DNA of 64,000 bases, from NCBI GenBank assembly GCA_051294375.1, contig CM119267.1, positions 6,534,367-6,598,366 of the forward strand, written 5' to 3'. Positions 7,506-61,600 of the stretch are shown in pieces. The notes under the pieces were generated by a model. The model had not been told where the DNA came from, ran no database searches, and worked only from the letters and a program-made list of their open reading frames with translations. The translations under genes and the position numbers were made by a program. This DNA is from Paraspadella gotoi (lineage: Eukaryota > Animalia > Chaetognatha). The stretch's first letter is position 1; each line of letters begins with the position of its first letter.

Positions 7506-10500
7506 TTAAGAGCCATTTTTCGCCGAGTTTTCGAGACTCTCGCTCATTTCATCAACGCGCGACTGGAGGCTTTTTTGTTGCGAATGGAGAGCGTCCTTGA
7601 GAACGACCGATTTGGCTTTGGTTTTGTCGAGTTCGCGCCCGTTCTCTTCGAGGTCTTTCTTTAAATCCTGGATTCGACCTTTGTTTGCTTCTCGCTCGGC
7701 CTCCAGACGTTCGTTGTCTTCCTTCAATCCCGCCAATTCTTTTTCCATCGCCTTCGCCTTTTCTCGAGCAGCGAACTTCCTCGTCTCGCTCACCGCGATT
7801 TTGTGAAAAAAATCCTCCAGATCAATTTTGTCCCCGCGGTACGAGACTAGGTCATCCGGCATCGTTGACTTTCCGCCGGCGTTGGTTCGCACTGGGGAAT
7901 ATGGATCGGCGACTCCCTCAGTCTCGACGGTGCTGCGCTCGACAAACGAGGAACGAAATAACGAAGAGTCTTCAAGATTCGATAGACTCGCGGAGTTGCC
8001 CACGTTTTCGCAGCGTTTGCCTTGATCGCCGGGTAACAACTCGTCGTCGTCTGGTCGGTCTCTGGTGCAGAACTTACGATAGGAGAGATAATCCCGAGTG
8101 AAGACTTTAGCAATGAGCCGACGAATTTGACTTTTGGACAGATTTAAACCCAAAATGGAAAGAATATCCTCGACGTCTCGGTCCTCTAAATAGCCACAGC
8201 GATTGAGGTCAAAAAACGTGAACGCGAAAAGCGATTGAATATCAGTTTTTAAAGGTCCTACATTTTTAACAGCATCTAACTCTTGACCTGGTTCCGTTTT
8301 CAATTTTTTAACGGGAGGTTCTTCTTTTATCTTTCCGTTTTCGGCAGAAAGGGTCAACGCTTGAAAAATTTTCATGCCTTGATCTCTTAACAACATTTCA
8401 TAAAAAAGCTCTGAAAACAACGATACTTCGAATGAACTTTCTTTCTGGTCATCCTGTTTGTAGTTAAGAAGATAACTTAAGGATTTAACAGAACAGTCAA
8501 ATTTTCCAGTTTTTGCTGCGTGATTAGGATAAACTAAAATAGCAGGTTCTAGCGAGTTTTGATCTCTGGATAACCCAGCCTCTGTTTCAACTGTTTCAAT
8601 AGTTTCGCTAATCAATACTTTAGTGTTAATTTTACTCAACAATTCGTCCTTTTCTTCAATGACATCTTGTTCAGATTTCAATGCTTTTTGTAGGCGAGCA
8701 ATTAATTGCGTTTTCAAACCTTGATCAGGTAGATTTCTTTTTTTTAACTCCTGACGTAACTCTTCAACTTTCATCTTTTTTGGGTCAGGATCTTGAAGAT
8801 TTTTGCCAAGAGTCTCTGAGTCATTCAACTTGAGATCTTTAATTTCGCCATCTTCGTTTGGTAATTCCATGCGGACCCTCATTCTGAATCGGATCCCTTC
8901 TTTTCGGTTCTGGGTATCGGCGACAGAATTCCAAATATCTGGCAGAAATATCACTACGGTCTCCGTTCTAGCAGCAACGGGTTTTCCTCTGTAGGTCTCC
9001 TCCGGCCGAAAATAATATATCTCTAAAAATTTGTACCAGGTTGTACAGCGACTCAAATCAATTCCTGTGAGTGATTTGGTGGTTCGAATGGCAGTGCGTA
9101 TCAAAACTTTTGGATCAGAGTCGGGATTAGCACCATCCTCCGAGGGAGACCAAGGGCCACCAATCGCCATAATTTCGTGCTTGTTTTTTAATCCGACAAG
9201 AAACTCGAAGCATTTACTAGCGTGCACTAAATCATCGTGACTGTTTTCAGATGATATGGTCCTTGAACATAACTCCTTGAAACAAGGAAAACTAAGCAGC
9301 ATAACCTTTGCCACAAATTGATGGGTTACATCTTCAGGTTCCGAAAAACTTTCAGTTTGATCCTCTTTTTTTTCAGAACGTATTTGAAACGAAGGAGGAG
9401 CATTCGCTTGAACAATAGGAAATGGATGTTGATTATCAAAAGTAGAATTACAAAATAAGAAAGCCGAGAAAAAATCTGATGGAATATACAAATTAGGGTA
9501 TCTAGATTTTAACGAGACAACATCGACGTCTTTTGTAACTGTAGAAAATTTCGGCACCTTTACATAATATCGTGGAAAAGTTTTGAGAGATTGAACCTTC
9601 TCATCTGGTTTAGTGTCTGACAAAGATTTTAGTGGAGAATCGGGCCTTTTTCTTCCCGAAGATGGAGAAGATTCCCTCGATACACTCTCATTAAAATTCT
9701 CTTTCCCGTGACCTCGGGAGGATTCTGACTCAGGAGAACTTTCTCTCTTCTCAGAAAACCCTTGGCCTGATTTTAAGCCAGCCTTAACTCTTTCTCTATC
9801 AGCAGTCGTTGGAGTCAATACCCCTCTGGCTCCGGCCCTTAACCGAGGAGGTAATGCAACAGCAGGAGACTTTTGCGGCGGAAGAGTCTGTTGTAACGTC
9901 TGTTGCTGTTGTGAAGGCTGCTGTGGATGCTGCGGTGGATGTTGGGGCTGTGTTTGAGAAACTTGCCAGTTCTGAATTATAGGTTGATTACCTATGTCTG
10001 TATTAAGCATTAATGGAGGCATTACAGAACCGGGTACGTCATTGTCTTTTTGCTGATTGGGCAACACCTGAATTCTATTGGCGTTCCATTTAAATGGCAT
10101 GTTTGGATTGAAAGAGGCCTCCACTAGAACTTTTTCACCAACTTTAGGGCGAACTCCTTTAATAACATCAAATTGAAAAAATACTTCTTCCTCAACAAAC
10201 CCAAAAGTATCTAGCATCTTGGTGACGGAGCCCGTAAACACCCTTTGCTTGTTAGAAGGAATAAGCTGATTTGAGGATCCAACTATTCCCAAATGAGGAT
10301 TAGGCGGAGCTGGATTTAAAACAAGAGGAGCTTCTGACATTCCAGTATTAGCTGCATGCATTGGTCGAGGAGGTGGATATCGGACCACCTCTGGAGTATG
10401 TATGTGGGGTAAAAGAGGGGGTGGAAATTGCTGAGCTTGTTGAACGGGCAGTCCCCCAAGAACGGGTTGTCCATGAGCTGCTGCTGGTAGTTGCAAGGAC

Positions 10501-10709
10501 CCGGCCGCAAAATGGCCCTGCGGAGGATTATTCAAAATCATAGGAGAAGATGCAAGCAAGGGTGGAGGGCTTCTGCTGTTCGGATTAAGGTTCATCAAAG
10601 GTATAGGATGCTGAGAAATTCCTCCTTGTGGTTGTGGGTTGATGTTTTGAGGAGTTGTCCGCGGAGGTCCCACCAATCCAGGGAAAGTCGGCAAATTTCT
10701 TCCGTCCAT
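7506..10709 (-). CDS. CCAR1: CCAR1/DBC1-family protein, copy A; single coding exon, ~1067 aa
   Basis: Uninterrupted ORF; the first ATG at 10709 lies just after a tttag acceptor. It has a Q/P-rich N-terminus, S1-like domain (QRVFTGSVTKMLDTFGFVEEEVFF...MPFKWNA), DBC1/Nudix-like domain (AIGGPWSPSEDG...GIDLSRCTTWYKF), SAP motif (KMKVEELRQELKKRNL...GLKTQLIARL), ESSFEVSLFSELFYEML, EF-hand-like FFDLNRCGYL and a C-terminal coiled coil. Confidence 0.93.
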   Translation of the reverse strand: MDGRNLPTFPGLVGPPRTTPQNINPQPQGGISQHPIPLMNLNPNSRSPPPLLASSPMILNNPPQGHFAAGSLQLPAAAHGQPVLGGLPVQQAQQFPPPLLPHIHTPEVVRYPPPRPMHAANTGMSEAPLVLNPAPPNPHLGIVGSSNQLIPSNKQRVFTGSVTKMLDTFGFVEEEVFFQFDVIKGVRPKVGEKVLVEASFNPNMPFKWNANRIQVLPNQQKDNDVPGSVMPPLMLNTDIGNQPIIQNWQVSQTQPQHPPQHPQQPSQQQQTLQQTLPPQKSPAVALPPRLRAGARGVLTPTTADRERVKAGLKSGQGFSEKRESSPESESSRGHGKENFNESVSRESSPSSGRKRPDSPLKSLSDTKPDEKVQSLKTFPRYYVKVPKFSTVTKDVDVVSLKSRYPNLYIPSDFFSAFLFCNSTFDNQHPFPIVQANAPPSFQIRSEKKEDQTESFSEPEDVTHQFVAKVMLLSFPCFKELCSRTISSENSHDDLVHASKCFEFLVGLKNKHEIMAIGGPWSPSEDGANPDSDPKVLIRTAIRTTKSLTGIDLSRCTTWYKFLEIYYFRPEETYRGKPVAARTETVVIFLPDIWNSVADTQNRKEGIRFRMRVRMELPNEDGEIKDLKLNDSETLGKNLQDPDPKKMKVEELRQELKKRNLPDQGLKTQLIARLQKALKSEQDVIEEKDELLSKINTKVLISETIETVETEAGLSRDQNSLEPAILVYPNHAAKTGKFDCSVKSLSYLLNYKQDDQKESSFEVSLFSELFYEMLLRDQGMKIFQALTLSAENGKIKEEPPVKKLKTEPGQELDAVKNVGPLKTDIQSLFAFTFFDLNRCGYLEDRDVEDILSILGLNLSKSQIRRLIAKVFTRDYLSYRKFCTRDRPDDDELLPGDQGKRCENVGNSASLSNLEDSSLFRSSFVERSTVETEGVADPYSPVRTNAGGKSTMPDDLVSYRGDKIDLEDFFHKIAVSETRKFAAREKAKAMEKELAGLKEDNERLEAEREANKGRIQDLKKDLEENGRELDKTKAKSVVLKDALHSQQKSLQSRVDEMSESLENSAKNGS

Positions 10710-10916
10710 TTTCAAAAACCCTAAAATTAAATATTTTTAATGATCGAACATGTTAAAAGCAAACATCCAAAATTTGCTTAATTAATATTAAGATATGTCT
10801 TTGATTAGAGTTAGTATATTTCAACTGATAAATTTGCACTCTTTAAACTGAGATGTTTTGATTCTAAGCCTTCTTCACCAAAACACGAGCTATTTTGCCC
10901 ATGACTTTGGTCAGGC

Positions 10917-11185
10917 TATAGTGGATTAAGTCCTCTAAGTATGTGCGTTTCTTGTACGAGTATTGGAGACTTAAAGCCGCTTTACCACCTAGTTATAAGT
11001 ACTATGCCGCAGCCGCTTTGTGACTAAGTGGGCTCACCCACCATTCCAACCGTGAATTCCAGGTTCAATACATGAGGCTTTTAGCTAATTTGCCAATTTA
11101 TTTCCTCCCGAGAACGGACCGCGACAGTGGTAGGTGGCGACCTGCTTAACGGGCATCACAAGAGATCCCCGCCGTTCCTAAATAC
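10917..11185 (+). mobile_element. GC-rich repeat-like insert with a tatagtggattaa start and B-box-like GGTTCAATAC
   Basis: Its start resembles the family 1 terminus. The segment caaccgtgaattccaggttcaat matches family 2 at 31618-31641. Confidence 0.4.
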
Positions 11186-12873: not shown

Positions 12874-15800
12874 TCAAGTATCTTCTTCGCTCGTTTCTAC
12901 GCTCTGTGATTTGCCGTTTTCTTCGTTCGGGGCGTCGTATTTTTTGAGAGTTTTTTCGATTATTTCGACACCCTTAGCCAGAGCGTCTCTCTGGCACTGA
13001 AGTACGTTAGTGAAAGCCGAAACTTTCGTTTGCTGCACGTGGAGATCAGCTGCAGAGGAAGTGTAAATATCATTTGTGAAAAATATACAGATTTGGAAAT
13101 CTGCATTGATACTTAGGAAAAACCAAGTTAAATTTGAATAAATTACCTAAAAGTTAAAAGAAACAAAGCAAACAAAGTTCCTCAAAACCTCACCCGCTGA
13201 TGCATCGTACGCCGCCTGCAAACGCTCCATCTCGATCGCGTCCTTACGGAGACTGTCTTGAAGCTCTTGCTTTCGATTCTTAACGATTTGAATCTCGGAC
13301 TCGGAGTTTTTGACGACCTCGTCCAAGGCACAGATGTCCGCCTCTACGTCCGCCAATTGTCCCGAAATTTTGTCCAGGTCTACGACGGAGCCACGAAATA
13401 CGACCAGAGTCGACGAAGACGACGACGTCGAAGGGTCGGCCAAGGGATTCGATAATACTTCCTCCACGTCTTGCATCGCCCCTGGAGAGGACCGACCTTC
13501 TTTTGAAACAAAAAAAGATACGTATTCAATAAACAGAAGAGTACATATAAAAACGAAATACGTGTAATTTCCGATTTACCTGGTCCGACATTTCGAGGGG
13601 CAGACTTTTCTTTCTCCTTCTCCTTTATTGACATCAACAAATCGACGTTTCCCATAACATCCGAACTAGACTCGGATTCCAAAACGTTAGCTTCTCCTTC
13701 GTATTTCCCGGTTATCGATTCGTAAATAATTTTATCTTTTTCCACGAAGTTTTTCGATACTTGCTTAATCTGACTCCTCGACAAGCTAAGGCCCAACGTT
13801 TCGAAGATGTCGGACAAATCTTTCTCGTAAAGGTAACCGCACCTGTTGAGATCGAAGTAGACGAAGGCGATAGCGAGCAGAGGATCCGCGCACTTTTCTT
13901 CGGGCGGCACTCGATCCTCTCCGCTAGATTTCAGAGTCAATTCTCTGTATATTTTAAGCCCGAAATCTCTCAACAACATCTCGTTGAATAACTCGGCAAA
14001 GAGAGATACTTCGAAGGAGCTCTCTTTCTGATCCTCGTGCCTGTAGTCAAGCAAGACGCTGAGAGACATCAAACTACAGTCGAATTTACCGCTTTTGGCC
14101 GTTTGGCTCGGATGAACTAAGAGTTGCGGAACGTGGGGCAAGTAATACATTTTTTCTAATCTTTGTACATCTTTATTTAATTGTATATCGTTTTGTAAAG
14201 AGGTTTTAAGATCTTCTTTATCGTGGTTCATTATCTCAGAGCCGAATTTTTCTCTTTCTCTGTCTTCCATTTCTCCGGCAATATCGTCTTGCTCCTGTTC
14301 AGCTTTGATCGCTTTTTGCATCTTGGCAATAAGGAGGGATTTGAGTCCAGTTTCGCTGACGTTTCGTAATCGCAACTGTTGCCGAAGCTCGCTTATTTTC
14401 ATCTTTTTCGGGTCTAATTCGGACCAGTGTTTCGGCTGTTCTCCGGGGCAATCCGCGGACGAATCCAAAGACGTCCCGACCGGGCCGGACGCCGCCTTTT
14501 CTATCGCCCTTTTTTGTAAAGTTTCTACCTTTTCATTTCCGATTTTTCGGTACGACGCAATAGTGCGTTCCCAAATTTCTTTATCGATCTCTGCGTTCCA
14601 AATATCGGGCAAAAACACAACAACGGTTTCCAAATGAGCGGGTATCACCGTTCCTTTATAGGTCTCCTCAGGGCGGTAATAATGCAACTGAACGAACTTG
14701 TACCACTTTTTGCAAAGGCTTAAGTCAATTCCGGTCAAAGCCTTGGTATTTCTAATCGCCGTCTTAACGAGGACCTTCGGATTGCCCAACGGGTCCAGGC
14801 CATCCAACGAAGGCGACCACGGCCCGCCGATGGCGGCAAGCTCATTCCTATTCTTGGTTCCGACCAAAAATTCCAGGCATCTGGTCGGGTGCTTGACGTC
14901 CTCCTTTTCTCGGCCGCTCGACAGTACTTTCTCGCAAAGCGCGTCGAACGTCGGCAGAGCCAGCAGCATAACTTTGGCGACGAACTCGTGATTGGCATCG
15001 GACGGATCAACGGCGCCCGAGCTGCTCGTCGGAGCCTCCGCGTCTTTCGAGAAGACGTTAAATCCTAAAGGCGTCTTTTTTTGAACCAAGGGAAAAGGAG
15101 AGTCGATTTCAAAGGCGGAGGACCAGGAGATTTGCGCGGAAATAAAATCGGACGGAATGTAAAGATTGGGATACCTCGCTCTCAAGGCAACCACATTAGC
15201 AATTTTAACCGCCGTAGAAATCTTGGGGATTTGAACGGAATAACGAGGCGAGGGTTTTACCCTACGTGGGGATCGCTCCTCCCTTTTCTCGTCCGACGGA
15301 CGGGGAGATCGAGAACGCGTTATATTACGAGATCTCCTCGCTTCGTCCGGCTCGTCTCTCTTTCCTTCCAAAGAACGATCCCTACGGCCGACGTCTCGCC
15401 TCTCTCGTTTCTCTCGCGGTCGACCCCTTGAGGCGTCCCCGCCCCTTCGATGGTCCAAACCCTCGTCTCGGGCCCTGTCGACCGCGAATCTCTCTCGTTT
15501 GCCGCCGTCCATCGCGTCACGAACCCAAGAATGCGACAATGACGAAGAAGACTGGGATCCGAATCCAGACGACTCTGTGTTGGATTGAACGGGAAGCGCT
15601 TGGACCCTGGAAGCGTTCCATTTGAAAGGCATGTTGTGATTGTATGACGCTTCGACAAGAACCTTGTCCCCAAGTTTGGGCCGCGGACCTTTAACCACGC
15701 TGTAGGAGAAGAAGACGTCGTCGTCGACGAAGCCGAACGAGTCGTGCAACTTCATCACGGAGCCCGTGAAGACGCGCTGTTTGTTGTTAGCGTTTTGAGC

Positions 15801-16256
15801 CTCGGTCCCGCGGGCAACGTTTTGACCCGCCACTGCTGGGGCAGGCTGGGACGAGCTTTGGAACTGAGGTCGAGGATAAGCCACGGGCTGGGCGATGAAC
15901 TGCGTTCTTTCTTTGTTAACGCTCGCCTCTAGTCCCAGTGGAGGCGCTTGGGCCGAGTTTCCCGGGAATCCCGCCAAGAACGAGTTACGGGGGGTGTGGT
16001 TTTGATTTCCCCCCGGGGCGGATGGCAGATTAAGCGGTGTCGAACCTGTTTGAGCGCTCGTCATCAACGGCGCTGGACCGAGAATGCCAGGGACGTGCTG
16101 TTGATGCTGCGGCGGCTGCATGATGGTGGAGCTGGTCAGAGGAAATCGTTGAGGGGGAAATCCACTCTCGAGAGTCGACTGGAACTGGCCGTGCGAAGTT
16201 TCCGGTTGAAGGGAAGGAGGATGCCAGTTGGTCGTCGCGAATGGAGGTTTGTCCAT
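12874..16256 (-). CDS. CCAR1: CCAR1/DBC1-family protein, copy B; 3 coding exons, ~1052 aa
   Basis: Exons 13580-16256, 13194-13499 and 12874-13049 are GT-AG and phase-compatible. Same domain order as copy A, plus an R/D/S-rich segment and HWSELDPKKMK before the SAP motif. Confidence 0.93.
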
Positions 16257-18000
16257 GTTTTCATTATTCAGAGTCAATTATAGCTGACAAGAAAATAAAT
16301 CCCTTGGCTTACAATTAGGAACAAAATAAAAATAACCAAGATACAATAAAAAGGTTCGGTTGTTTGTGCGAAGGGACGGGTATTTCTGAAACTTGTTTTG
16401 TACGTAAATATGTTTCATCCGCAGTACGTATTTTTTAACAAAGTGCACTAAACCTAAAGAGGGTAACAGCAAATTGAACAAATAAAGCAACCAGAAACTG
16501 AAAAATTCAAAATAAAAATTCTTTTATTGCTTTACATTGATGCTATTTGAAAGAGTAATGGAAGGAATGAAACTGGATAAAAAACTTTCCGAGACGATGT
16601 CTGCAGTTCCTTAGTAAGAAAATCACACCGCGAAACCCTCTTAAAATTATGTGAAAATGCAAAAACCAACCCCCTTTGGTATTTTTCGTTTTGGCTAAAT
16701 ATATCACAGTTCTCTGCAGAAGTCCTTTATTGGAGAAAAAGCCATAGTTTATGTAGACAAACATGCAAAATTGCAAATACCGTAGATATAGAGTTGGAAA
16801 ATTTGCAAGATTATAAGGAAAAATTTTATTAGTGAAAAGTAATTCCGAATTTTACTTACTTACTTAAAATTGTAGGTTTTATCATATTTTCCGGATATTA
16901 GAATTTTTTTCCTAGTAACCACAAATTTGCCAACACTTGGATTGTTGGCGCAAGTAAAAGTCAACAGTAACAGAACTGAAGTGTTTGTGCGGTTTTATAA
17001 CGCGGCGGCAAATAACTCAATCATTCAACATCCGCTGAAAATCGAAACATAGTAGCTCATTGAAGGAGAAGAGCGCCTTTTCATCTTATCTAAATATATA
17101 CAGATCCTAAAGTAGTAACGTATCAAACACACTTTCTTGAAACCTATTAAAAACTTTACAAAAAATATTTTAGATTCTGTAGAAAGAAAAATAAAATCCG
17201 GAAATAAATAAGTAATAATTAACTGAAACAAAAGGTGACGCTAATCATCCTCTCGCAAAAACTTCGGATGCTTCTAAACAGTTTGTTCCATGTCCAAAAC
17301 GAAAAATTCCATATTTGACGAAAAGGGATGTTTATCTTCAATACTATGTAAGGCAGGCACAATAAAAGAAAACCCTATATTGCGTGAAAGGACGTAAAAC
17401 TGGAAATTTACGATACGACGGCCACAATTTTTTTTTGAAGAATATGAGTATAATCTACACGAACGGATTGAACACAGCATGAATTTTTTTAAGTACTTAA
17501 TCAGATCTTATTTTGTTTATTAAACAATGCTCCAGTTTTTTCCGCCCTTCGGTCGAAACATTTTTTTTTAGATAAAATAAACCGAAACGTCCGCTTCTAA
17601 AAAAACAAACCCAGCAGTAATATATATGTAGCAAAACAATGGGTATGTAAAACTGGGAAGGTAAAAAAAATCCACACGAATGAGAAAGAATGAAAAAAAA
17701 AAACCGTGCTACTTATCCGTCAGAGGATACGCAATTACAGGGGGAAACATTTTCCCTGCGCTCTTCTGTTCTAGTGTAGTCGGGTATGAGTTTTAAGATC
17801 CAAAACAAACTCTTTCATCCCTTTAGCAATTTTCCCGCGTTGAGAGATCCTGACTACCTCAGGTATGGACACTCAACGAACGAAATAGGGAATGCAGATT
17901 TTTCCCCGTCCGCACAAAGTGAGTTTCAGACGAGAGACTAGCACTGGCGTTCCGAGGCGGGTGAACGTTTTAACCGAGAAGTGAGGGAGCGTTCCTCCAT

Positions 18001-21000
18001 TCAAACGGGTCCGGTGCGGTCGCCAGCGTCGGCGCCGGAGAGGGCGTGCTCGGTCATGCTCAAAGCTAAAGATTCCAGTCGAGTGTTAATGTCGCTGATC
18101 GCTTCCCCGGCGTGACCAGTCTCCGAAGGGCGAGGGACCGTTCCTGAATTTAAATAACTTAAAAATATGATTAAATAATGCAGTTGGTGGCGGTACGAAT
18201 AAAAAGACGAATGGACGTCATCAGCCTTGTCTCATGGCTCAGCGGGCGAGAGCACATCGTCTCAACAGTGCGTCCATTATGGAAGTGGTTAAAACGGACG
18301 GGTCCGCAGCCCCTCCGTCAGTTGGCGAGATAGAAACGCCACCGTTGCCGTAAGTTTTACTTTTACTTTAAACGTCTATAATGGAATAAACGCTGAAATG
18401 CATGTAATAATAAATGTATATTGTATAATGTATATTATATAATTGTATATCTCTCACTCTCTTTGGGTTGATTCGCTTCTCCAGGCGCCGACTGCGTTCT
18501 AGTCACGGCCGAGTGCGCGCTTTTGTCAAACGCGTTTTGACGCTGCATGAAGTTCCCGTTCGTGGAATTATTGCGACCCAGATGAGGAGGAGGCGGCTTG
18601 CAAAGCCCAACTTACAAATCAAATAGCACTTATTAACACAAAAATCTATGGAAGTGTCAAATGTTAAAAACATGTTACAAACTTACCGGGAGTAATCCAA
18701 GGTCCATCACCAGAGCTTAAATCACCATCGGGGGTCGAACATGTCGGGGAGGTCGATGAATCGTGACCTGGAAAAATTAGATTTAAAAATTCGAAGAGAA
18801 AAAGTTTTGTTAATTTTGTTTATTGCCACACAATATTTTAAATTGGGGAAAAAACGTACTGGTTTCGACTCTTTTTTGCCAAACATTTGATGGAGAGAGA
18901 GAGAGAGAAGTGAGAAAAAAAACAATGAGGACAGTTGAAGGAGAGTGAAGGGAAATAAAATTAGATTAGTTAAAGTAGGGTTGTCGTGACGTAATATCAC
19001 TACCCGTTGGATACAACGCTTCATCTCCGAACTCAATGGTCCTGGGTTCTAGCCCTGGTCAAAAAGACCTTGCAAAAGATTGACTGGCCGGATAAACCCC
19101 CTGTAGCAAGGCTACCGCCGGATCCGAAATTTCGGAAAGCAAGGCAACTGACGGAATAACCTCCCAGACCCACTGGCCCAGTGGGCACACTGAGTGTAGG
19201 GGCTATCCACACCGTCAGAGAGGCACGGCGACCCTCTCTCTTCTTGGCCAGTGACCAATGGTCACTTCATGGTGAGGATAATATTAGGAAAGCATTACAT
19301 TTGGTTAATGTACAACAATAAGTCGAAACAAGACATTAACAATAAGTTTATGTCCAACATGTACACTTTTCCAAAACAAATCGTTGTTTGTTAACAGATA
19401 CAATATCAAAAAAGAACCAAATCAAAGCAATCGTCAAGCACCAGTTCACATACACGTGCGATCTCTTCGTCAATCCTAGGTTTTTAATAATTATAAACAA
19501 AATAAAATTTTAAATTGTAAGCCAACCCAGGTCGCCCCTATTTACCAAACGACAACTTTCCAACGGAAATCAAAGAATTCTTCAGCGAGAAAGGATTCTG
19601 AGAGGATACGTTTTGAAGAGGAGGCGCCGAAGGTGGAGGCGCACCCAAAGACCGCGAGACCGGCATGGATTGGTTCTCGACCGGGGTCATCAGCAGAGGG
19701 TGGGAGGATCCGCGATTCATCAGCGCCGCCGCTGCCGCCGCCGCCGCGTAATTCGTTTGTGGAAGACCTGAATAAAAATAGTGAAAGAACGGAGAGTTAA
19801 ATGGTACAAACTTGGCCAGCATATAAAATTATGTATATGGAATAGTACGATCATGAATTACGGAAATATATAATACAATTAAAAGGAAAAATCTCACCGG
19901 CGGCAGCAACGGCTGCGAACGCGGCGGCCGTTTGCGGACTGGAAACAGCGGAGGCGTAGAATGAAGGATGCGGGTGAGAGTTGAGCAGCGAGCGCGATCC
20001 CGAGGTGGGCGTGGAGGCTTGACTACTGGAGGCGAAAGACGGAGCAGCCGTCAAGGGCGACGAAAGGGGCGGCAACGAATCAGTGGAAGACTCCGTCGAT
20101 GGAATCGAGGAGTAGGTGCTGAATAGCGAACGCGGCAAAAAAAAAAAGAAAGTTACTTTAAAAATGTATATTACCTTTAAATCATTATCGTTACATAAAT
20201 TACACCATCGGCACCTAGAATGCCTGAATGCCCAGTTGGGTCGATGGTTTTTGGAGAGATCGCCGCGTCTATGCGAGACTCCCATCGGACGCCAGATCTT
20301 CATGATTTGTTGCTTCCAAGAGTTCAATCGTTTTTTCTGTGGAGATTATCGGCGAAAAAGGGGGGAAGAGTAAGCAAGCCGCAATTCGCGGGTATTCAAG
20401 GCCCCACTCAGTCGTCATTCGCCAACCTGAGTATTATTGAAAGCTTCGTGGTTGAGCGTTTTGTCCAGAAGAGACAAGTAAGTTCCGATGCCCTCCTCGT
20501 CGGGCCTGCCCGGGGAAACGAGAAGCTGCGTGCAGGCCTTTCCCAACACGCGGGTGATTAACGACGGAAGATCCATATCGTCGGGGGAAGAGTGAAGTCC
20601 GCCGTCCGCTATTGTTTATGGGATGAAGCAGAAAAAGCTTCGAATTTATCATAACTGCAAAAAAAAAAAAAAAAAAAAGTAACTTACCGGACGGAGACGT
20701 GGGTGGCGTCACCGCTTCAACGCCGTTGGAACGTCTCTCTTTTCCAGAGTCGCTCGCATCGTTGCTATCATTGACGCCTTTGTTTGTTTCCGGCGATTTG
20801 AGGACGCCGCCATTGTCATCATTACTTGATGTTGTTGCCGTTTCTGAAAAGCGAAAAAAATGGATGCGGAATAAATCGAAACCAAGTCGTATGTAGTAAA
20901 TACATAAATAGTGTAGTGAAATCAAGGAAGGACATTTTTAAACTACTCTTTTTACCAGCTTTTTCGTAGAATTTAATCGGCGAAGCGATGATGAGCTTTA

Positions 21001-24000
21001 AGTCGTTGAAGGCCTGACGCAATGGCTTCCCTTCCACGATGTCCGTCTCGATTTGGCGCAGTTGTCCAGGCCGTTCTCGCAACTTAGAGATGCTCAGACA
21101 AATCTTGTGGCGCGCGCCTTTAGAACAGATTTCTTAATTTAATTTGAGTGGCTTGTCGCGGTCGATGAGCAAATAAACAAACGGTTACCTTTGGTAACGC
21201 CTTGATTTTCCAGTTGCTCTTCGTTGAGGTTGAGCATCTGCTCGTAATCGAGTTGAGAAAAGAGATGTGCGTATCTGAGAAACGCAAAACGAGTAAATGA
21301 AAATAAACATTTTTTTCGGGTCATTAAAAAAAACCATTGGAGGTATTTACTTATGCAATCTCAAACTCTTCAACCAGGAGGGAACGTCCCTCATTCCGCT
21401 CATGTGGTCCGAAAATGAGTTTCGGCCACCGGCCGTGTTCCGTCCCAAGCTTTCGAAGTCTCCGCCGTCGGAGGACGCCACGCTGCTCTGAGGCGAGAGC
21501 GGGGCGTGGCGTGGCGCGACGAAGCCACCGCCACCGCGTAGCAACGACGATCCGTCAAAGGAATCTGTATGCAAATGTAGGGTACACAATGTAATGCGCG
21601 TCTTCATTTTCCGACGTTTTTTAAAGGATACAGAGTGTCTCGAGCGTACTGTGACTTTACAAATGAACGCTGTGTCAAATTGGTAAGGAAAATTATCAAT
21701 TTGATAGAACCACCAGAAAGATAAGTTTATACAGTTTTTTTGGTATCTATATTATCTATATTATCATGTTTATTTGTATTTTTATAAACAAAATGCAAAT
21801 TTCAAATGAAGGGAAATTTTGTTTTGAGCGTCGATCAAACAATTTTGGTGATATCAAATTTATAAATTAGTCCTGCTTTTGGTGAAAAATATAATTGTGC
21901 ATATTATATTATAGTAGGCTACTGAAGAGACAGCTACAATGTTTATTGTGCCCTTGACCAAGAATTTTGTGAAATTGAAATGCTTGACGATGATGATAAC
22001 GATTTCAGAAGAGAAGATTCAAAAAATTTGTTTTTTTAGACGCTCATTAAGTTTACCTTCAGGAAACTGATAAACGCTACAAATTTAGTATCCTATGATT
22101 CAGCATATGATGTACATAAATACAGAGTACATTCTGCCGCTAAAACTATTTTCCAGCTGACTGCAGCTCATAAGCATTGCTAATATAATTGGCTCTGTCA
22201 AACCAGCTGCATGTCTGTAACAGTCTTTCAATTAAAACCAATCAAATATTCTCAAATCCGAAAGGACAATGGTCAAATTCTGTCAGGAAAGGCCTGTGAC
22301 CATCACTTTACCACAGCTGAAAAAAAATCTTTTAGGTAGTTGGAAAGATTTGAATATTTTAAAATTTTTTCGTCATTGCCTTTAAGTGCTGATAAAATGT
22401 TATATAATTGTTTGACTTTAAAAATAAAATCAGCGGCCATTGGTTCCGGAGGCAAGTCATTCGCCTCCCAACCCAAAGGTCCAGGGTTCTAGCCCGGTGG
22501 TCGCTTAGCACGGGGCGCTTAACCCGCCTGTAACACGGTGTTACAGCCTGATCCAAAGCTCAGGGACTGCTTATATTGAACGGTTCTGTCACTTATATAA
22601 CAACAATAATTACTGTCTCTTCAACATCATATAAAACTAAGAACTTCTGGATCCAACGAGTACAGTAAATGCATTTTTTATAACTGTACTGACTCACTGT
22701 ATTCATTTGCAAAGTGACAGTATACTTGAGATACTCTGTAGATATTTAAAATTATTTTCATGTTTCTCAGACGTTTTTTTCATAAACTAAATTTGCTTAC
22801 AGGCAGACAGTAATTTGATTACTGTTTTTTGTTGAGCGAATTAGTGATTAATAATAAATTCATTTAGCTTTTAGGGTAGTAAATAAGCCTATTTAACAAT
22901 ATAAAACGTCCATCACTACTGCAAATATTTATAGTAGAACTAGTTTTAAATAGTGAAATAAATTTATATTTTTAATAATTTTTTTCTATTCTTGTATTAA
23001 TATTAAGTAAAATTAATTTATCGTTTTAATTATTACACCTGTTTCGGTGGGAAAGGAATTGGACCGCGTGCAGCGGGACAGGGCGGCGTTGTTGCCGTTG
23101 GTAGCGGCGGTGGACGACGGCGGAGCGGCAAGGCGCTGCGCCAGGTTAGTCATAGTCGCCGTCGACGGCAGTTCATCTTGAATTGACGATTGAGAACTGA
23201 AAGGAGGCCATTCGTCCTGGAGGATTTTTGATGAATGTAATGTGATAAATGCAATGTATTTAGGTCCAAACAGAATTTTACAATGGAAATATCCCCGACG
23301 AAATCGTACCTAGATAGGGAATCGGGAGTCGGGACAGCTTACTTGAAACTGTGGGCTCGTCGGCGTGGATGAGGGCGGCGTGAGCGAGTTGCTTCTTTGC
23401 CTTTGCCGCCGGCCGATGGGCGGGAAGTCGTCCGCGTCGAAGCGGTCGCTCGTCTCGTCGCTCTGCAGTGACTGAGAAAAGAAAGATCGGCGCGATCCTC
23501 CGAGCGGCGTTGCCGACGAGCAATAACCGGCGTCGTGGCCGGCCACGGCCGACGCCGGTGGGATCTGGGCGCCCGGCTCGGCGAAGGTGAAGTGCCGATG
23601 GCTCGACCCGCTGTGAGAGAAGGAGTCGGCCGACAACGGACCTTTCAGGGGTAAAGCGTTAGATTACACACCAAAGATGAACTATAAACAATCTATGGTG
23701 GACTAAAATCCACCAACCGTTTATCAGTGGCCATTGGTGCCGGAGGCAAGTCATTCGCCTCCCAACCCAAAGGTCCGGGGTTCTAACCCGGTGGTCGCCT
23801 AGCAGTTAAGAGGGACGGGGCGCTTAACCCGCCTGTAACATGGTGTTACAGCCTGATCCGAAGCTCAGGGACTGCTTATATTGAACGGTTCTGTCACTAA
23901 CACAACAATAATTACTGTCTCTTCAAATCTAAAATAAAAAATATAATATTAAATAACAGTTGAAAAAATAAACTAACATTATTCAATTTATATTCAAAAT

Positions 24001-30926: not shown

Positions 30927-31157
30927 TATGGTGGACTAAAATCCACCAACCGTTCATCAGTGGCCATTGGTGCCGGAGGCTAGTCATTCGCCTCCCAACC
31001 CAAAGGTCCGGGGTTCTAGCCCGGTGGTCGCCTGGCAGTTAAGAGGGACGGGGCGCTTAACCCGCCTGTAACATGGTGTTACAGCCTGATCCGAAGCTCA
31101 GGGACTGCTTATATTGAACGGTTCTGTCACTAACACAACAATAATTACTGTCTCTCC
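30927..31157 (+). mobile_element. Family 1 repeat, full length; twister at 31035-31108
   Basis: Same 231-bp element, with a perfect 5-bp TSD aaaag at 30922-30926 and 31158-31162. Confidence 0.9.
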
Positions 31158-31576
31158 AAAAGTATGTTTTAGTAAAAATGAAACCAAAACAGTAACTTAC
31201 TCGAAACTTACCTGCTTACTTCAAATTATTTAAACCAAAATACAATGTACACCTTGCCAAAAGCATTGTTATACTATAAATGAGTATTTCCAAAAAATAT
31301 TTTTAACTGTTATGTCTTAGAATGAGATTAAATAATAAGTTTTCAAACATTTTTCTGCCAAACCGCGCGGAGAAAATCGAGCAGTTGCCTTTGCTGCATC
31401 AAAAAAAGCAGTATATTAAAGAATTTCAAAAATATTAAAATATCGTCTAAAAGCTAAGAGAGTCTTATACAAATATTTATTCAGATTTTAAAAATAATTA
31501 AGAGTTTTAGAGTAATGATTTTTTAAATTTTGTCTCTATATATGGTCCCACCGCTGTAGTATAAATGAAAAGTGTA

Positions 31577-31856
31577 GATAGTGGCGAATCCTGAATTCGC
31601 CTCCCGTATATAGTTCACCAACCGTGAGTTCCGGGTTCAATCCCCTCACGGTCACACTGGTTAAAGTGTGATGTGTCGGAATAAACACGCCAGTGACATG
31701 GGGTGGTCACTGCAGGTCCAAAGCCCTGAGCGCCAGCTGTCGGGAGATGCCTCACACCCCAGGTATCACACATGTCCCTCCGTTGCCATAAGTGGTGAGC
31801 CCTACTATCGAACACGCAACCGCTGCGTACCGTCGCTCACGTCGTCGCTTAAATAA
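31577..31856 (+). mobile_element. Family 2 GC-rich repeat with a B-box head and a twister fold
   Basis: GC-rich island in AT-rich DNA, with a 5' hairpin GGCGAAT..ATTCGCC and a B-box GGTTCAATCCC. Boundaries are approximate. Confidence 0.6.
31657..31736 (+). ncRNA. Twister ribozyme, type P5 (candidate)
   Basis: P5 CTGGT/GCCAG; P2 GTGT/ACAC; GA; U^AA at 31682/31683; GC; P3 CAGTGAC/GTCACTG; P4 CAGG/CCTG; L4 UCCAAAGC; conserved A after P4. One T1 mismatch (TGT vs CCA). Confidence 0.75.
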
Positions 31857-32756: not shown

Positions 32757-35300
32757 CTACATCATGTAAAATATGTCTTGCCTGCGCACCGACTTACCTT
32801 TAAAAAAAAAAAATCCATTGTATTGTGAACAAAATATTAGCATATTACCCTGCTTTGAGCCCAAAATTACGTAATCGCTTTCATCATTGACGGAAGAAAG
32901 GTCATAACTAAAAATAATATTGTTGGATTTTATACATACAGAGCTTCAATTACGGAGCTTCAATTTTTTTCTATTTATTTTTTAGTTACTATAATTACTC
33001 GCATAAAACTTTTTTTACGGTCTTGCTGCAAGGAATTTTGTACTGGCGGCACTTGTCACAAGGAACATACTTATCAAAAAATATATGATGCCATTCTTCA
33101 CGAGGAATAATAGGGCGACTTTTGAAAGCTATTCTCCTGACCTAAAAAAATCGACTTATCAGACCTTATCATTTTAGTCATAACCATTTCGATTTTTCAT
33201 GACTTACATCTCCCCACGTTAGGACTCGTCGATCGCATTCGAAGTCTTCCGTTTTAAAATAAGCAAAACGATCATTATTTTCTGTTTCCATGACGACAAA
33301 ATCCTGTTAGCAAAGTAAAATTTTTTAAAAAAATTTTATGTTAAAAATCATTTTAATTTTAGGTGATACTAGAAAGTAAATAAATTGTCAAATTAAGTAC
33401 GGAGACTCTAAATATGCCCAACAAACATTCCACATGGCGGGAAAACAAATATATTTGCATCAAAATATTTTGACCTTATTCAGAAACTTACTTCCGTGAG
33501 AGGACGATAGTATTTGTCTCCAACGAAGAGCCACAGATTCGGAAAGAAAGCTTCTTTTGCATCTACTGCTCTAACGCAACCCCACTTGTCCTGGTTCCAT
33601 GACTTCTCATGATTAACTTTTGAACCATTTTCCAACTTTAAACTGTACTTAATTCGCCGAATTCCATGACAAATGGGAAATCGATTGAATTCCGGCGCTG
33701 ATCTGCAAACAAGCATAAGTTCGGCTCTGTTTAAGTTTTTGGGTTTTAAAGCTGAACTTGGCAATTGAGGAATGACTAATGAGGGAATGATTAAATGAAC
33801 AATTTTAAAAATATAAAATTTAAAATAAGTAAGTCGAAAATATACGAAAACCTGTGAATCGGCTTGGGGTTCCATTCAATGCGAATTTCAACTTTTGGGT
33901 TGTTATTAGCGTCCAAAGGGCAACCTGGAAATGGAATGTACGCAACTGTCACAGCTCGTTTTAATAAAAAATCAGATTGAGATTAAAGACGTCGTTATTA
34001 TTATTTTAATAGTAAGAAATTTGTCCTTAACTGATATATATGAAAGGCAAAAAACATACCTCGTTCAATCAATCTATTTTTATATCCTCCATTTAGGCAC
34101 TTTTCAGAGACTTCATTAACAACCATTTCTGACCTAATATAAAATGAATATAAAGGCGAGGAGAAGACAGAAATATAGTAATGAATTCAATCGTCCTTAA
34201 TAGTCCCTCATCTTTGGATCAGGCTGTAGCCCAAGCTTCGGTAAGTCAAGCGCCCCGTCCCACTAACTGCTAGGCGACCACTGGGCTACAACCGCTAAGT
34301 GCGCTAAGTGGGCCTGAAGAGTACTATCTGAACTTATGCAATGCCCGACTACATGCCCCCAGATTGTTACCCACCCTGCACTGCTTCCAGTGGAGGGAGG
34401 GGAGCAATCTTCAGCAAATCCATGGGCCTGGAATCAGAAGGTTGGAATACGCTCGACAGGATGGGCTCAACAGAGTGGATAAGACGCTAAGTGGGGCTGA
34501 AGAGTACTATCCACAACTTCATTAACCCCCTCTAGCAGCCATGGAACGGGTCCTGGGCTTTGAACCAGGCTTGAGGGTTTTCCACGCCCCAAGGCGGCTT
34601 ACGACCATTCTCATGCTTCCGGCAGGGTAGGTACCGAGTTCAATCTCATGATGGCTTTACTCAATGAGCCACCGGGTCACGACTGTAGGTGTCATGCTTA
34701 TAGGCAGGGTGAACTTATGCAATGCCCGACTACATGCCCCCAGATTGTTACCCACCCTGCACTGCTTCCAGTGGAGGGAGGGGAGCAATCTTCAGCAAAT
34801 CCATGGGCCTGGAATCAGAAGGTTGGAATACGCTCGACAGGATGGGCTCAACAGAGTGGATAAGACGCTAAGTGGGGCTGAAGAGTACTATCCACAACTT
34901 CATTAACCCCCTCTAGCAGCCATGGAACGGGTCCTGGGCTTTGAACCAGGCTTGAGGGTTTTCCACGCCCCCCCAAGGCGGCTTACGACCATTCTCATGC
35001 TTCCGGCAGGGTAGGTACCGAGTTCAATCTCATGATGGCTTTACTCAATGAGCCACCGGGTCACGACTGTAGGTGTCATGCTTATAGGCGGGGTGAACTT
35101 ATGCAATGCCCGACTACAGACTTTCCTCCGGGTCTGTTTGATGGATTTTAATCCAACATAACGATCAATGTTAATATTGATATCAATAAAGACAACTCAA
35201 CGACCAACTTTAATATTTACTTATGTAGAGAATAAAAAGCGAAAAAACAAAGCGTTCACTTGATCGGAACTTCGATTCGAACGATGCGCAGCCCTACCAT
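32757..35300 (-). CDS. Unannotated 8-exon gene, ~255 aa, no family recognised
   Basis: Exons 35260-35300, 34060-34133, 33852-33954, 33492-33702, 33208-33303, 32999-33141, 32849-32907 and 32757-32797 join with GT-AG sites into a stop-free 768-nt frame. The terminal exons are uncertain. Confidence 0.7.
34330..35160 (-). repeat. Tandem array of a ~381-bp GC-rich monomer (family 3) with a degenerate twister-like fold
   Basis: Units start at 34330, 34711 and 35095 (partial); the two full units are nearly identical. A diverged partial copy lies at ~60998-61202 (+), and a family 1 fragment at 34202-34292. Confidence 0.85.
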
Positions 35301-36310
35301 AAGCATAAAAAGTGTTTTTTATTAAATATTTAATTGAATTTGATTCTTTAAGAAAAACTTTGCTATTCGTTTTCCCATTGATCTTTAGAGCGTATCAATC
35401 ATCAGGAATAACCTTTACTTTTATACCAGATGTAAACTAAATTGATTAAAATGATTACAATTACCCAAGATAGGAGCATTTTTAATAAACAGACCGACCA
35501 AAAAGTGACTTATTGAGTTATCACGTAACTAAAAAAAGTTGACGGCTCAGTGGGCATTTTAGTAGTCTGGCAAGCTTCCATGGGACGGGTTGGAATATCT
35601 TTACAAAACCTTGGGAATATTACCTTGGTACCAAAATAAGAGTTGAGATAGAACGATTTTTTGTCTACAAAGCCAAAAGGTTCGTAATCGGGTTACTCCA
35701 ATATGCAAATGAGATTAACGTATCACAGTAATATTTTAATTTAATAAAAACTTATTAATCTTATATAAAAATTTAAATAAATATAATAAAATCAAATTAA
35801 AAAGCTAGTATATATAGTTTTATCAGCAGATAGGATAAAAAAAATAATATTAAGCACTAAAAAGCATATGAAAATACTATTGCAATAAAGGTTTTTTGTA
35901 ACTTAATCTTGAAAGATAGTAAGACAGTAAAGCAAGGACAAAAAACTATTAAGACAGATAGAAAGATACAGATCAATCAGTTTTTTGTTTTGCTCACAAC
36001 CATTTTGGTACTGTTTACTTGAATCATAGCAAGGATTCTTCGGATGCTTTCCTTTCCAGCGCTCTCATCAATTAATTTCAGAGTAAGATTAATAGTAAAA
36101 AGAATTCATGATTGTTTTTGTAATTCTCTCCGTCGTTATCATAGTTATTATCTTTGTTTGTTTGCTTTAAAAAAGACTACAAAGTTGAAAAAAGCTTTTG
36201 GCTTACCTGCAAAAAATATAAAAATGTTTATTCTTTCTAGAATAAAAAAATACTTTTATGTAAGGTGATGGCAAACAAGGTGAGGAAACTATTTTCATTT
36301 TGTTGGTGCT

Positions 36311-36543
36311 GAAGAGACAGTGATAACTGTTATGTGTTAGTGACAGAACCGTTCAATATAAGCAGTCCCTGAGCTTCGGATCAGGCTGTAACACCATGTT
36401 ACAGGCGGGTTAAGCGCCCCGTCCCTCTTAACTGCCAGACGACCACCGGGCTAGAACCCCGGACCTTTGGGTTGGGAGGCGAATGTCTTGCCTCCGGCAC
36501 CAATGGCCGCTGATGAACGATTGGTGGATTTTAGTCCACTATA
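36311..36543 (-). mobile_element. Family 1 repeat, full length; twister at 36362-36435
   Basis: Reverse-complement copy with a perfect 5-bp TSD gtgct at 36306-36310 and 36544-36548. Confidence 0.9.
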
Positions 36544-58659: not shown

Positions 58660-61600
58660 GATGAGATGATTTTGTGAGCGGGTAGGAAAGTGTGTGAAGA
58701 AGCTAGATATAAGTTTTGACGGAATTGTGCCAGTGGAAATGAGTTTAAATGGAAAAAACATAAGTCACATTTACTTGAATCTTTTTTATTTATGATTACT
58801 AATAAATGTTATAACTAATTAATTAATTAATGTGAAAAAATGATGCAATTTAAAAAAATTATGCAAGTTGAAAAAATGATGCAAGCAGAAAAATGATGCA
58901 AGTTAAAAAAATCCTAAAAGCATAAGGATCGTCGCAATTGCAGAGAGAGAGGAGAGAGAGAGAGGAGAGGGGGAAGAGAGAGAGAGAAGAGAGCAGAAAA
59001 ATGAGCATAAGGATCGTCGCAATTGCAAAGAGAGAGAGAGAGAGAGAGGAAAAAGAGGCAGAAAAATGAGCATAAGGATCGTTGCAATTGCAAAGAGAGA
59101 AAGAGAGCAGAAAAATGAGCATAAGGATCGTCGCAATTGCAAAGAGAGAAAGAGGGAGAGAGAGAGAGCAGAAAAATGAGCATAGGATCGTTGCAATTGC
59201 AAAGAGAGATAGAGAGAAGATAGAGAGAGAGAGAGAGAGAGAAAGAGACAGACAGAGTCCGAGATAAAATTAGACGAATAAAAAGTTGTTATTTTACTTA
59301 CTGAATATAAAATACTTAAAATGCTTACAAAATACATAAAATTGATAAAGTTATTATTCCGATAACATTTTTTAATCTCATGCAATATATCAAGTAAGGC
59401 GGGCCAAATTTTACACTTTTTATAACTTCTAGTTCTCTCAAAAAATTTCTTTTTTCCTTCTACTACTAAATCGATTTTCAATGTAACTTTTTGAATTAGT
59501 TCATTGGGTTGTTGCACTGAAGCTTTTAAATATTTATTAATATATAACAAATGACAAAAAAAATTTAAAATTTGATTTTTTAGAACGGGTTCTTGTAGAG
59601 CTTAAAAAGTTAAATGAAAGTTAGTACTATAATTTTTTTCAAATTTTGACAATAAATTGGTTTAAAATAGAAAAAAACCTTAAAAAAATTATCATAATTA
59701 TCATTATTGGCTAAATTTTTTTTAAATTTTTCATTAATAAAACAAAAAAATTTTTAAAAGTTGTATTAATAACCTTTATCTAACTATTATTATTATTATA
59801 TATTTATCAGAATCTATAAAAAAAATTAATAAGCAGAAATTTTAAAAATTATTTTTATTTCATATTTCGCTTAACCATTATTTATTTGAGAGAACTTCTA
59901 GGTTTCCACCTGTTCCGGCCTAATATCTAGTAAGGCGGGCCAATATTGAACACTTTTATAACTTCTAAGTTCTCTTTAAAAATTTTTTTTCCTTTTTACT
60001 ATTAAATCGATTTTCAATGTAACTTTTTGAATTAGTTCATTGGGTTGTTGCACTGAAGCTTTTAAATATATTAAATATATAATAATTATATAGAGTTTTG
60101 ACGGAATTGTGCCAGTAGAAATGGAGTTTAGATGGAAAAAACATAAGTCACATTTACTTGAATCTTTAAATATTAATGATTAATAATAAATGTTTTAATT
60201 AATTAATTAATGTGAAAAATGATGCAAGTTAAAAAAATCTTTAAAAGCATAAAGATCGTCGCAATTGCATAAAAAAGAGAGAGAAGAGAGAGTGAGAGAG
60301 AGAGAGAGAAGGAGACAAAAATAAAATAGAGGATATTTGTTTGTTTTGATAAAATGTAAACAAAACATATTTAATAACTGTCCTAACCCAATTTTAAGGA
60401 CATCGATGATGATAAGTGAATTAAATTTAAAATTAATTATTTACATTTTGAAAATTAATTATATTAACGTTTTATTAAATTATCGTAGGCAGATCCGATC
60501 GTTGTTGCTCCAAACATTATTTTTAGTCAACAAGAGTCCGGCAATGTACCTCTCCCTCATGATTATAAAATGTTTATAATATGAACAATGTTTTTGGCGG
60601 AACTAATTTAGCATAGAATATCTGTAAGGATAGGTGTCAACCATTTTTGACCTAAATCAAATTAAAATAAGTAAGGAAACTATATAGAAAAATAATCTTT
60701 TATCATTAATCAGAAAAAAAAGTATCATCATTTTTTCCCAATTCCGTTTTCAGACTGACTTTGACTTGCTGTATTCTACTGCCTGAACCAATTAACTTTT
60801 TTCTTGCACCAATCAATAGCTTTTTAAAAAAGCTATACTTTTCATAAATATTTTCTTAAAATTAAAAAGAAATAGTGGGGGTATTTAAAGCTAACAAGTG
60901 TCTACTTTTTTTTGCGTCGGTTTATATTAGTCTCAGATATTTTCGAGAATCTCCAACTTGAATCGAGAGCTATTTGCTATTTGCCGTTTGATTGTAGGGT
61001 AGTCGGGCTTTTCATAAGTTCACCCCGCCTATAAGCATGACACCTTCAGTCGTGATCGGTAGCTCATTGAGTATTAGCTACCAGGATCAATCCCCAATGG
61101 TTCCTACCATGCGGGAAGCGTAAGGCTCGCTGTAAACCACCTTGGCGGCTTAGAAAACCCTAAAGCCTAGTTCCAAGCCCAGGACCCGTTCCATGCCTGC
61201 TATTACCTTCCCATTGTATAAATATAATAAGTAAACAAATATTCAAAAAACCAATAATTCGAAGTAAGAACAAGTTTGAGCAAACAATGTCGGATCTGCC
61301 CACGATCATTAGAGGTAATTAATAAATTAATTAATTTAATCCAAAATGTTTGTTTTTGGATCTTTTTGTCAATGACCACTAGAGTGATGTAAAAATGATA
61401 AAATTTTAGAAAATTAAAAATTAGCATATAAAATATAAAAATAAAAATTAATAAAAATATTTTAGTAAATTTATTTTTAAATTTTATAAGTGGGCAACAG
61501 TAAGCTATAAGTAAATAATAAACTAAAAGGAGAGAGGATTTCATTAATTGGATTGGATAGTGTGTGGTAGAAAAATGTGTATCGATTGCCTATATAAAGT

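Follow-up and report, generated by a model that had tools for sequence, protein, structure and literature searches.

The window, i.e. the whole 64,000-nt stretch of DNA analysed, is animal DNA rich in A and T that includes two CCAR1 paralogues. These lie in tandem on the minus strand (7506-10736 and 13380-16277), have long uninterrupted reading frames of 1076 and 965 aa, respectively, and showed 41-45% identity over long alignments in the homologue search. No Pfam match to a reverse transcriptase or an integrase was found in the 116 reading frames scanned in the window. The short repeats treated below are numbered as families 1 to 4. The features identified in the family-2 stretch are as follows.

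31577-31790, plus strand: family-2 repeat, likely a 5′ LTR (depth rise near 31580; loose ends at 31790/31791; homology to family 1)
31583-31601, plus strand: 5′ hairpin (7 bp), counterpart of the family-1 opening hairpin, located within 31577-31612
31609-31613, plus strand: internal deletion junction, at which the A-box-like head part of other copies is gone (loose letters, contig)
31621-31652, plus strand: tRNA-like T-arm hairpin with a Pol III B-box motif at 31634-31644 (fold and pattern)
31656-31737, plus strand: fold of a circularly permuted (type-P5) twister ribozyme, including P3 (descriptor, pair counts, family variants)
31672-31681, plus strand: T1 3′ strand and P1 hairpin, damaged in the window copy, which is one base short and has A at 31680 (contig variants)
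31682-31683, plus strand: predicted U/A cleavage site (place of UAA in L1 and the twister consensus as given in PMC8501958 and PMC5408937)
31786-31790, plus strand: likely LTR 3′ end, CCATA (loose-end cluster; contig ends)
31791-31853, plus strand: short internal region, the window copy stopping short of the expected weak PPT and 3′ LTR (contigs)
31793-31805, plus strand: PBS-like motif starting with TGG (directly after the repeat end; TGGTGAG common to the family-4 end)

The family-2 stretch is present, whole or in part, in 12 sequencing runs (nine of them labelled organism A; three studies), and variants were counted in the contigs of seven of the 12 (X1, X2, X5, X9, X10, X11, and X12). X5 and X9 belong to studies other than that of X1, and X1 may be the source of the window itself. 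In X1, 2,127 contigs align on 401 nt of the family-2 stretch; summed contig depth does not equal copy number and was not used as such. All observations on loose ends, i.e. letters clipped beyond the alignments in runs X1-X12, apply among the rows listed.

The 5′ edge of the 31577-31790 repeat is uncertain by ~4 nt, and ~45-50 nt are missing in the window copy. Loose letters precede 31613 in 70, 68, and 42 contigs of X1, X2, and X5, respectively (among the rows listed), one contig has 35 letters between 31608 and 31613, and several single contigs link the 5′ hairpin segment to the body with intervening letters, among them an A-box-like stretch. While the window copy has lost the A box, the loose letters show a degenerate one in organism A and a canonical one in X10 and X11. 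The T-arm hairpin at 31621-31652 has a fold z of -3.9, with none of 200 shuffles as good, and the B box at 31634-31644 is an exact match to the B-box pattern. ARAGORN and Rfam (the latter run on the tRNA-like heads) gave no tRNA match. Of the seven B-box matches in the window, six are followed at a distance of 56-72 nt by an L4-like motif, and 136-146 nt including a twister lie beyond the B box in these repeats. The family-2 twister is situated 38 nt downstream of its Pol III B box, and the repeat that contains it is high-copy and has LTR traits. A B-box match at 58598 (minus strand) lies in a tRNA-like stretch of a different repeat with no twister downstream.

At the 3′ side, AT-rich loose ends with unlike flanks were found behind 31790/31791 in 55 and 53 contigs of X1 (among the rows listed), and long contig pieces stop at 31788-31791 in X1, X2, X5, and X9. 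Among the tRNAs compared, the PBS-like motif best matches the 3′ end of honeybee tRNA-Trp (Fig. S2 of PMC10886601), at 11 of 13 positions by eye. Its first seven letters, TGGTGAG, occur eight times in the window and follow the repeat end in both family 2 and family 4. Contigs spanning 31620-31853 were found in X1 and X5, and loose letters of X12 run beyond the TGG PBS-like motif into AGGG and then TATG (among the rows listed). The internal parts comprise ~40-65 nt and end with AGGG followed by TA, as judged from the loose letters in the rows listed; AGGG-TA also occurs in two window copies. AGGG before TA is the only PPT candidate and a weak one. The box formed by the repeat end and the PBS-like motif (31782-31821) is identical in X11, a biofilm run, and in X12, a run of organism B, and X12 has no match to the family-2 element outside this box; the carriers of the box in X11 and X12 may be relatives of organism A or traces of it. 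The same box was considered as a hammerhead and rejected, as it has no core and a fold z of -0.07. In X11, a single 506-nt contig begins and ends with the box in the same orientation, at a spacing of 488 nt, which hints at a sister family arranged in tandem.

A run of four T residues is absent in all six repeat copies tested, and no poly-A or simple-repeat tail was found on the repeat copies. Neither predicted cut site coincides with a loose-end cluster among the rows listed, and the depth shows no step there. No complete two-LTR copy was seen in the window or in the contigs compared. Family 2 terminates with ...TA, not with TG...CA. The carrier is classified as an LTR-type mini-retrotransposon with good confidence; more specifically, the family-2 repeat probably represents the LTR of a very small, non-autonomous LTR retrotransposon, a Helenus-like TRIM, to judge from its sequence features.

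In the twister fold at 31656-31737, the elements follow the order P5, P2, GA, T1, a short P1 region, UAA, P2, GC, P3, P4, L4, P4, A, and P5. All pairs are formed in P5 (31657-61/31732-36; 5/5, including one G-U), P2 (4/4), P3 (7/7), and P4 (4/4), each helix at the place that the initial annotation had assigned to it. The T2 pseudoknot is complete (2/2), and T1 has two of three pairs in the window copy and is complete in most family-2 copies. The stretch thus contains the permuted P2, P4, T1, and T2 with termini in P5 that define type-P5 twisters, and the window copy also contains the conserved core of GA (31670-71), UAA (31682-84), GC (31689-90), L4 with U-NNN-AAGC (31717-24), and the post-P4 A (A31729). 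Alternative letters at G31670 and U31682 account for <1% of the depth in the X1 family-2 copies. In the initial annotation, this core was said to be kept between families; GA, UAA, GC, and L4 are indeed kept, whereas the post-P4 A of the window copy is replaced by G in family 1. The P1 stem, which in twisters is usually at least 2 bp and is dispensable (PMC5408937 and PMC11662667), has 2 bp in the family majority and is broken in the window copy.

A relaxed type-P5 descriptor, written with the motifs of 31656-31737 already in view, matched four places in the window, namely 31656-31737 and three family-1 copies, whereas two matches were obtained in 200 block-shuffled windows and none in 20,000 shuffles of the element. 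Rfam returned only a sub-threshold twister-P1 match (20.8 bits versus a gathering score of 67.2; E 0.036-0.17), i.e. the twister element has no gathering-level match in Rfam and is not a member by gathering score. In nested folding (nearest-neighbour, without pseudoknots), the twister fold lies 6.5-6.8 kcal/mol above the best fold in the element context, and this gap persists with the family majority letters. At 31656-31737, the type-P5 twister fold is genuine, and the ribozyme of the family is very probably a functional twister with the cleavage predicted above.

The window copy differs from the family majority at three ribozyme positions. In X1, X2, X5, and X9, G at 31656 accounts for 94-96% of the depth, and C at 31680, which creates a 2-bp P1, for 88-97%; the window copy has A at the latter position. 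An extra G behind 31672 was found in 46, 47, 31, and 12-13 contigs of X1, X2, X5, and X9, respectively, accounting in X1 for 2,135 of the total aligned depth of 3,393 over 31673-74, and the X1 contigs clipped at 31673-74 (32 and 24) carry the same letters as the extra-G copies. In most family-2 copies, therefore, T1 is complete, P1 comprises 2 bp, and P5 is longer; the window copy is decayed. The description of the element as a mini-twister with P1 essentially absent is correct for the window copy, not for the family. The substitution T31674G, once proposed as a repair of T1, does not correspond to the state of the family, and the lesion is the loss of one base; G at 31674 occurs in seven contigs of X1 only (depth 240), whereas most copies carry the extra G behind 31672. 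In natural twisters, defects in P1, P2, and P4 are tolerated and pseudoknot mismatches less so (PMC11662667), so that the window copy may cleave weakly. Since its A-box part is gone and both T1 and P1 are weakened, it is likely a dead leftover.

Related copies in the window are as follows.

30927-31158, plus strand: family-1 solo LTR (5′ hairpin, tRNA-like part, twister) with 4-bp target duplication (contigs, flanks)
23694-23925, plus strand: family-1 solo LTR with 4-bp target duplication (flanks)
36310-36543, minus strand: family-1 solo LTR with 4-bp target duplication (flanks)
18981-19276, plus strand: family-4 LTR-like copy with a decayed twister at 19068-19144, AGGG before it, and the PBS-like motif at 19270-19276 after it

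When the family-1 twister (31034-31110) was compared with 31656-31737, 13 of 24 aligned pairs were identical, eight showed two-sided compensatory changes, and three were broken, a count that leans towards the model because the helices were defined from the same sequences. The pairs were anchored by hand; the automatic twister alignment had shifted P3 and P5 of family 2. The eight compensatory pairs, all still Watson-Crick, are distributed over P2 (1), T1 (1), P3 (2), P4 (2), and P5 (2). Two of the three broken pairs involve letters private to the window family-2 copy, and the third vanishes when the family-1 P2 is read with one bulged A, in which case it pairs fully. Families 1, 2, and 4 share a common layout and align above shuffled controls (0, 0, and 1 of 300 shuffles). 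The initial annotation had presented the family-2 twister as an independent one that provides covariation support, and it had overlooked the LTR-like carrier. Such support is borne out by the eight of 24 pairs changed on both sides and still pairing, whereas the independence is one of sequence divergence only and not of origin: on the evidence of the alignments, families 1, 2, and 4 are diverged homologues rather than separate inventions.

Family 1 has a sharp 5′ end at 30927 (129, 46, and 24 contigs), ~33 nt upstream of the tRNA-like part, and a 3′ end near 31158. Exact 4-bp flanking duplications (chance 0.007 each) were found in all three readable full-length copies, and the flanks of a fourth, partly unreadable copy match too; this scoring did not extend to two further pieces, one near 34250 (a fragment) and one at 22429 (5′-truncated). 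The flanks can alternatively be read as 6-bp duplications from an inner TG. The 4-bp reading is preferred because contigs align through the 5′ TA and the loose 3′ letters have no fixed TA; under this model, the termini are TA...CA and not TG...CA. Across the three readable copies, the 4-bp duplication is bordered by TA in four of six positions, a pattern suggestive of symmetric target preference in family-1 insertion. In the copy at 36310-36543 (minus strand), the tRNA-like part can form a 7-bp acceptor-like stem beside the T-arm-like hairpin; this part and the twister are together enclosed by a long-range stem of 9 bp.

The carriers of families 1 and 2 resemble the Helenus/TRIMp3 elements (Kojima 2024, PMC10886601), which have a short non-coding LTR with a tRNA-like A/B-box part, a PBS after the LTR, a short internal part, a PPT and a second LTR within a total of less than ~1 kb, many solo LTRs, and several families per genome, and for which the conservation of box B has been described (PMC10886601). 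The window families would match them with an exact B box, an A box that varies between copies, the PBS-like motif as candidate PBS, and AGGG-TA as candidate PPT. A 4-bp TSD, as given for animal Helenus (PMC10886601), was scored in family 1 and found there in 3/3 readable copies, with the 6-bp reading possible. Among the LTRs of that paper that were compared, Helenus LTRs mostly end a few tens of bases past the tRNA-like part, often with a T run, whereas the window families have 136-146 nt and a twister after the B box, no T4, and TA-type termini. The TG...CA termini of Helenus are absent (TA...CA in family 1, ...TA in family 2), a deviation seen also in a few Helenus consensus LTRs (PMC10886601). 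Because its termini differ, the carrier is best described as Helenus-like and not as a Helenus member. The main text of the Helenus paper makes no mention of a twister or of self-cleavage (PMC10886601), and a search of the Helenus consensus file for the L4-type motif gave 15 matches, none in a twister context by eye, although line breaks in the file can hide matches.

Plant LTR retrozymes (Cervera et al. 2016, PMC4918200) share with the window families a ribozyme in the LTR, the 4-bp TSD, and solo LTRs, and their conserved box of LTR end and PBS is comparable with the box at 31782-31821; a circular RNA intermediate and a Gypsy helper have been proposed for them (PMC4918200), much as we infer here. 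They differ in carrying a type III hammerhead, in occurring in plants, and in being larger (PMC4918200), whereas the present element has a twister and is found in an animal; no promoter is known for plant LTR retrozymes according to PMC7761336, in contrast to the built-in Pol III-type promoter motif here. For metazoan hammerhead repeats, PMC4918200 describes a PBS or PPT as not found. The element contains no hammerhead at the Rfam level, and LTR retrozymes are defined by one hammerhead per LTR. By analogy, the carrier would work like an LTR retrozyme without being one by definition. The ribozyme itself resembles type-P5 twisters (Rfam clan CL00120; PMC5408937) in P2, P4, T1, T2, UAA, the catalytic G, the L4 U-NNN-AAGC, and the P5 termini, and differs in that the family-2 P1 is only 2 bp, approximately absent in the window copy, and in scoring far below the Rfam gathering threshold. 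The T-variant twisters of the Schistosoma Perere-3 RTE (PMC8501958) also reside in an animal retroelement and have a weak or absent P1, but that element is non-LTR and autonomous, its twister is unpermuted, and its copies begin at the cut instead of spanning it. In a Schistosoma hammerhead SINE-like repeat (PMC6765202), too, a self-cleaving ribozyme follows a Pol III promoter of the tRNA type; unlike the window families, it is a tandem hammerhead repeat with no LTR features reported.

With respect to replication, the reading to which we give marginally better than even chances is a Helenus-like TRIM with a twister in each LTR, a Pol III start, and a cut-to-cut monomer that is circularised and copied back by a helper. 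The tRNA-like part of the 5′ LTR would direct initiation, and transcription, meeting no T4 terminator, would proceed into the 3′ LTR; the twister of each LTR would cut at U/A to yield a monomer of LTR plus internal region, ~260 + 60 nt (roughly 320 nt); the monomer would be ligated into a circle carrying the PBS; and the reverse transcriptase and integrase of a helper LTR element would use a tRNA primer to return the circle to the genome. In this scheme, the circle would stand in for strand transfer by an R repeat, and a T-run terminator would be superseded by the twister. For plant LTR retrozymes, a circular RNA intermediate is the proposal of PMC4918200, and ligation by RtcB was shown for animal hammerhead retrozymes (PMC7229834). 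We infer all steps of this circular-RNA cycle, and for the carrier it stands at about an even chance. An LTR design with a circle would explain why genomic copies are intact across the cut, and the LTR design as such removes the conflict between a twister that cuts and copies that span the cut.

The same TRIM might instead replicate linearly, which we consider unlikely, albeit deserving of attention: the 3′-LTR twister would make the 3′ end, the 5′-LTR copy would be off or slow through competing pairing, and an R repeat would be used with no circle. Consistent with such competition, 31652-57 can pair with the P2 strand and the catalytic GA at 31666-71, a head motif seen in the loose letters is complementary to 31735-41, overlapping P5, and the active fold lies 6.5-6.8 kcal/mol above the best nested fold; Helenus is, moreover, thought to follow the standard LTR route (PMC10886601). 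The two LTR sequences would, however, be identical, so that selective silencing needs an additional mechanism, and plant retrozyme circles are also predicted to be ribozyme-blocked and yet accumulate as circles (PMC4918200). The modelled folding gap fits a blocked state in the circle and, equally, linear replication in which only the 3′-LTR twister cuts. A lack of catalysis altogether, i.e. a twister-derived fold in a repeat that spreads without cleavage, appears very improbable. It would accommodate the sub-threshold Rfam score (20.8 bits), the unfavourable nested folding, and the copies intact across the cut, but diverged families retain every helix, both pseudoknots, UAA, and the catalytic G, with eight compensatory changes, and natural twisters tolerate imperfect P1, P2, and P4 (PMC11662667).

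Readings in which the carrier is not an LTR element fare poorly. A tRNA-headed SINE with an internal twister, comparable with the Schistosoma hammerhead SINE and mobilised by a LINE from tandem master copies, was the reading held first and was dropped upon the TSD and PBS checks; it is now regarded as quite improbable. Its layout of a tRNA-like head followed by a ribozyme is that of the Schistosoma element (PMC6765202), and the X11 contig that has the tail box at either end, with a spacing of 488 nt, would suit tandem masters. The SINE reading would not account for the fixed 4-bp duplications, the sharp 5′ end ~33 nt upstream of the tRNA-like part, the lack of an A-tail, or the PBS-like motif beyond the end, and the element does not show the features that define tRNA-derived SINEs, namely a start at the tRNA-like head, an A-tail or simple-repeat end, and variable TSDs. 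If a SINE-like RNA were cut by the twister, copies should moreover start or stop at the cut, as in Perere-3 (PMC8501958), and none does so among the rows listed. A non-autonomous derivative of a Penelope-like (Naiad) element, the pseudo-LTR of which contains a P5 twister, is hardly credible: PLE insertions carry optional 30-40-bp tails (PMC8557442), but the corresponding tail of family 2 begins with the PBS-like motif, exact short TSDs are present that are often not discernible for Naiads (PMC8557442), and no PLE-type Pfam match was found in the 116 reading frames scanned in the window.

The elements may constitute a class of animal LTR retrozymes, Pol III-driven, with a permuted twister replacing both the terminator and the R repeat, small circular RNAs dependent on the reverse transcriptase and integrase of an LTR element, and at least three homologous families within one genome; this proposal is tentative and falls somewhat short of an even chance. 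What would be new is the combination of a Helenus-type carrier, retrozyme logic, and a type-P5 twister, each part of which is known. The element joins three lines, i.e. plant hammerhead LTR retrozymes, Helenus as described without ribozymes, and animal retroelement twisters. In the literature searched (titles and the starts of abstracts, with Repbase and most subscription journals outside its range), neither an LTR nor a tRNA-promoter TRIM was seen to carry a twister, and the only printed retroelement role found there for animal twisters was the 5′-end processing of RTE elements. If the reading is true, eukaryotic twisters gain a defined job and the retrozyme gains a promoter of its own. The cycle predicts a circle of LTR-plus-internal length joined at U/A, Pol III dependence, and paired LTRs, and the element would provide a compact system for asking whether circular RNA is the real template of retrozyme insertion. 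The finding also makes it worthwhile to look among TRIM and 'SINE' libraries for further ribozymes. The exact family-2 pattern had no match in metagenome contigs, and two patterns had none in viral contigs. A degenerate pattern of B box plus twister found 67 loci in metagenome contigs, none of which (0/67) combined a P4 of at least 4 bp with TAA-N3-5-GC, and these were dismissed as chance matches.

Other repeats in the window show partial resemblance to these families. Family 3 consists of 381-nt tandem units that are 99% alike (34250-35160, minus strand), with a related copy at 61000-61205 (plus strand). The units open with a TATG hairpin like that of family 1 and contain the family-1 end motif once per unit; they have twister-like L4, P4, and P5, without a clear GA or T1, a B-box match, or a PBS-like motif, and are possibly a tandem-array relative. 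A chimera at 34190-34330 (minus strand) consists of a family-3 piece running into a decayed family-1 twister. The repeat at 11003-11181 (plus strand), of which there is one old copy, has tRNA-like A and B boxes, a T4 run right after the B box, and a tail similar to that of family 2; its flanks match at 3/4 positions, and a twister L4 is absent. It is possibly a ribozyme-less sister LTR that keeps its terminator.
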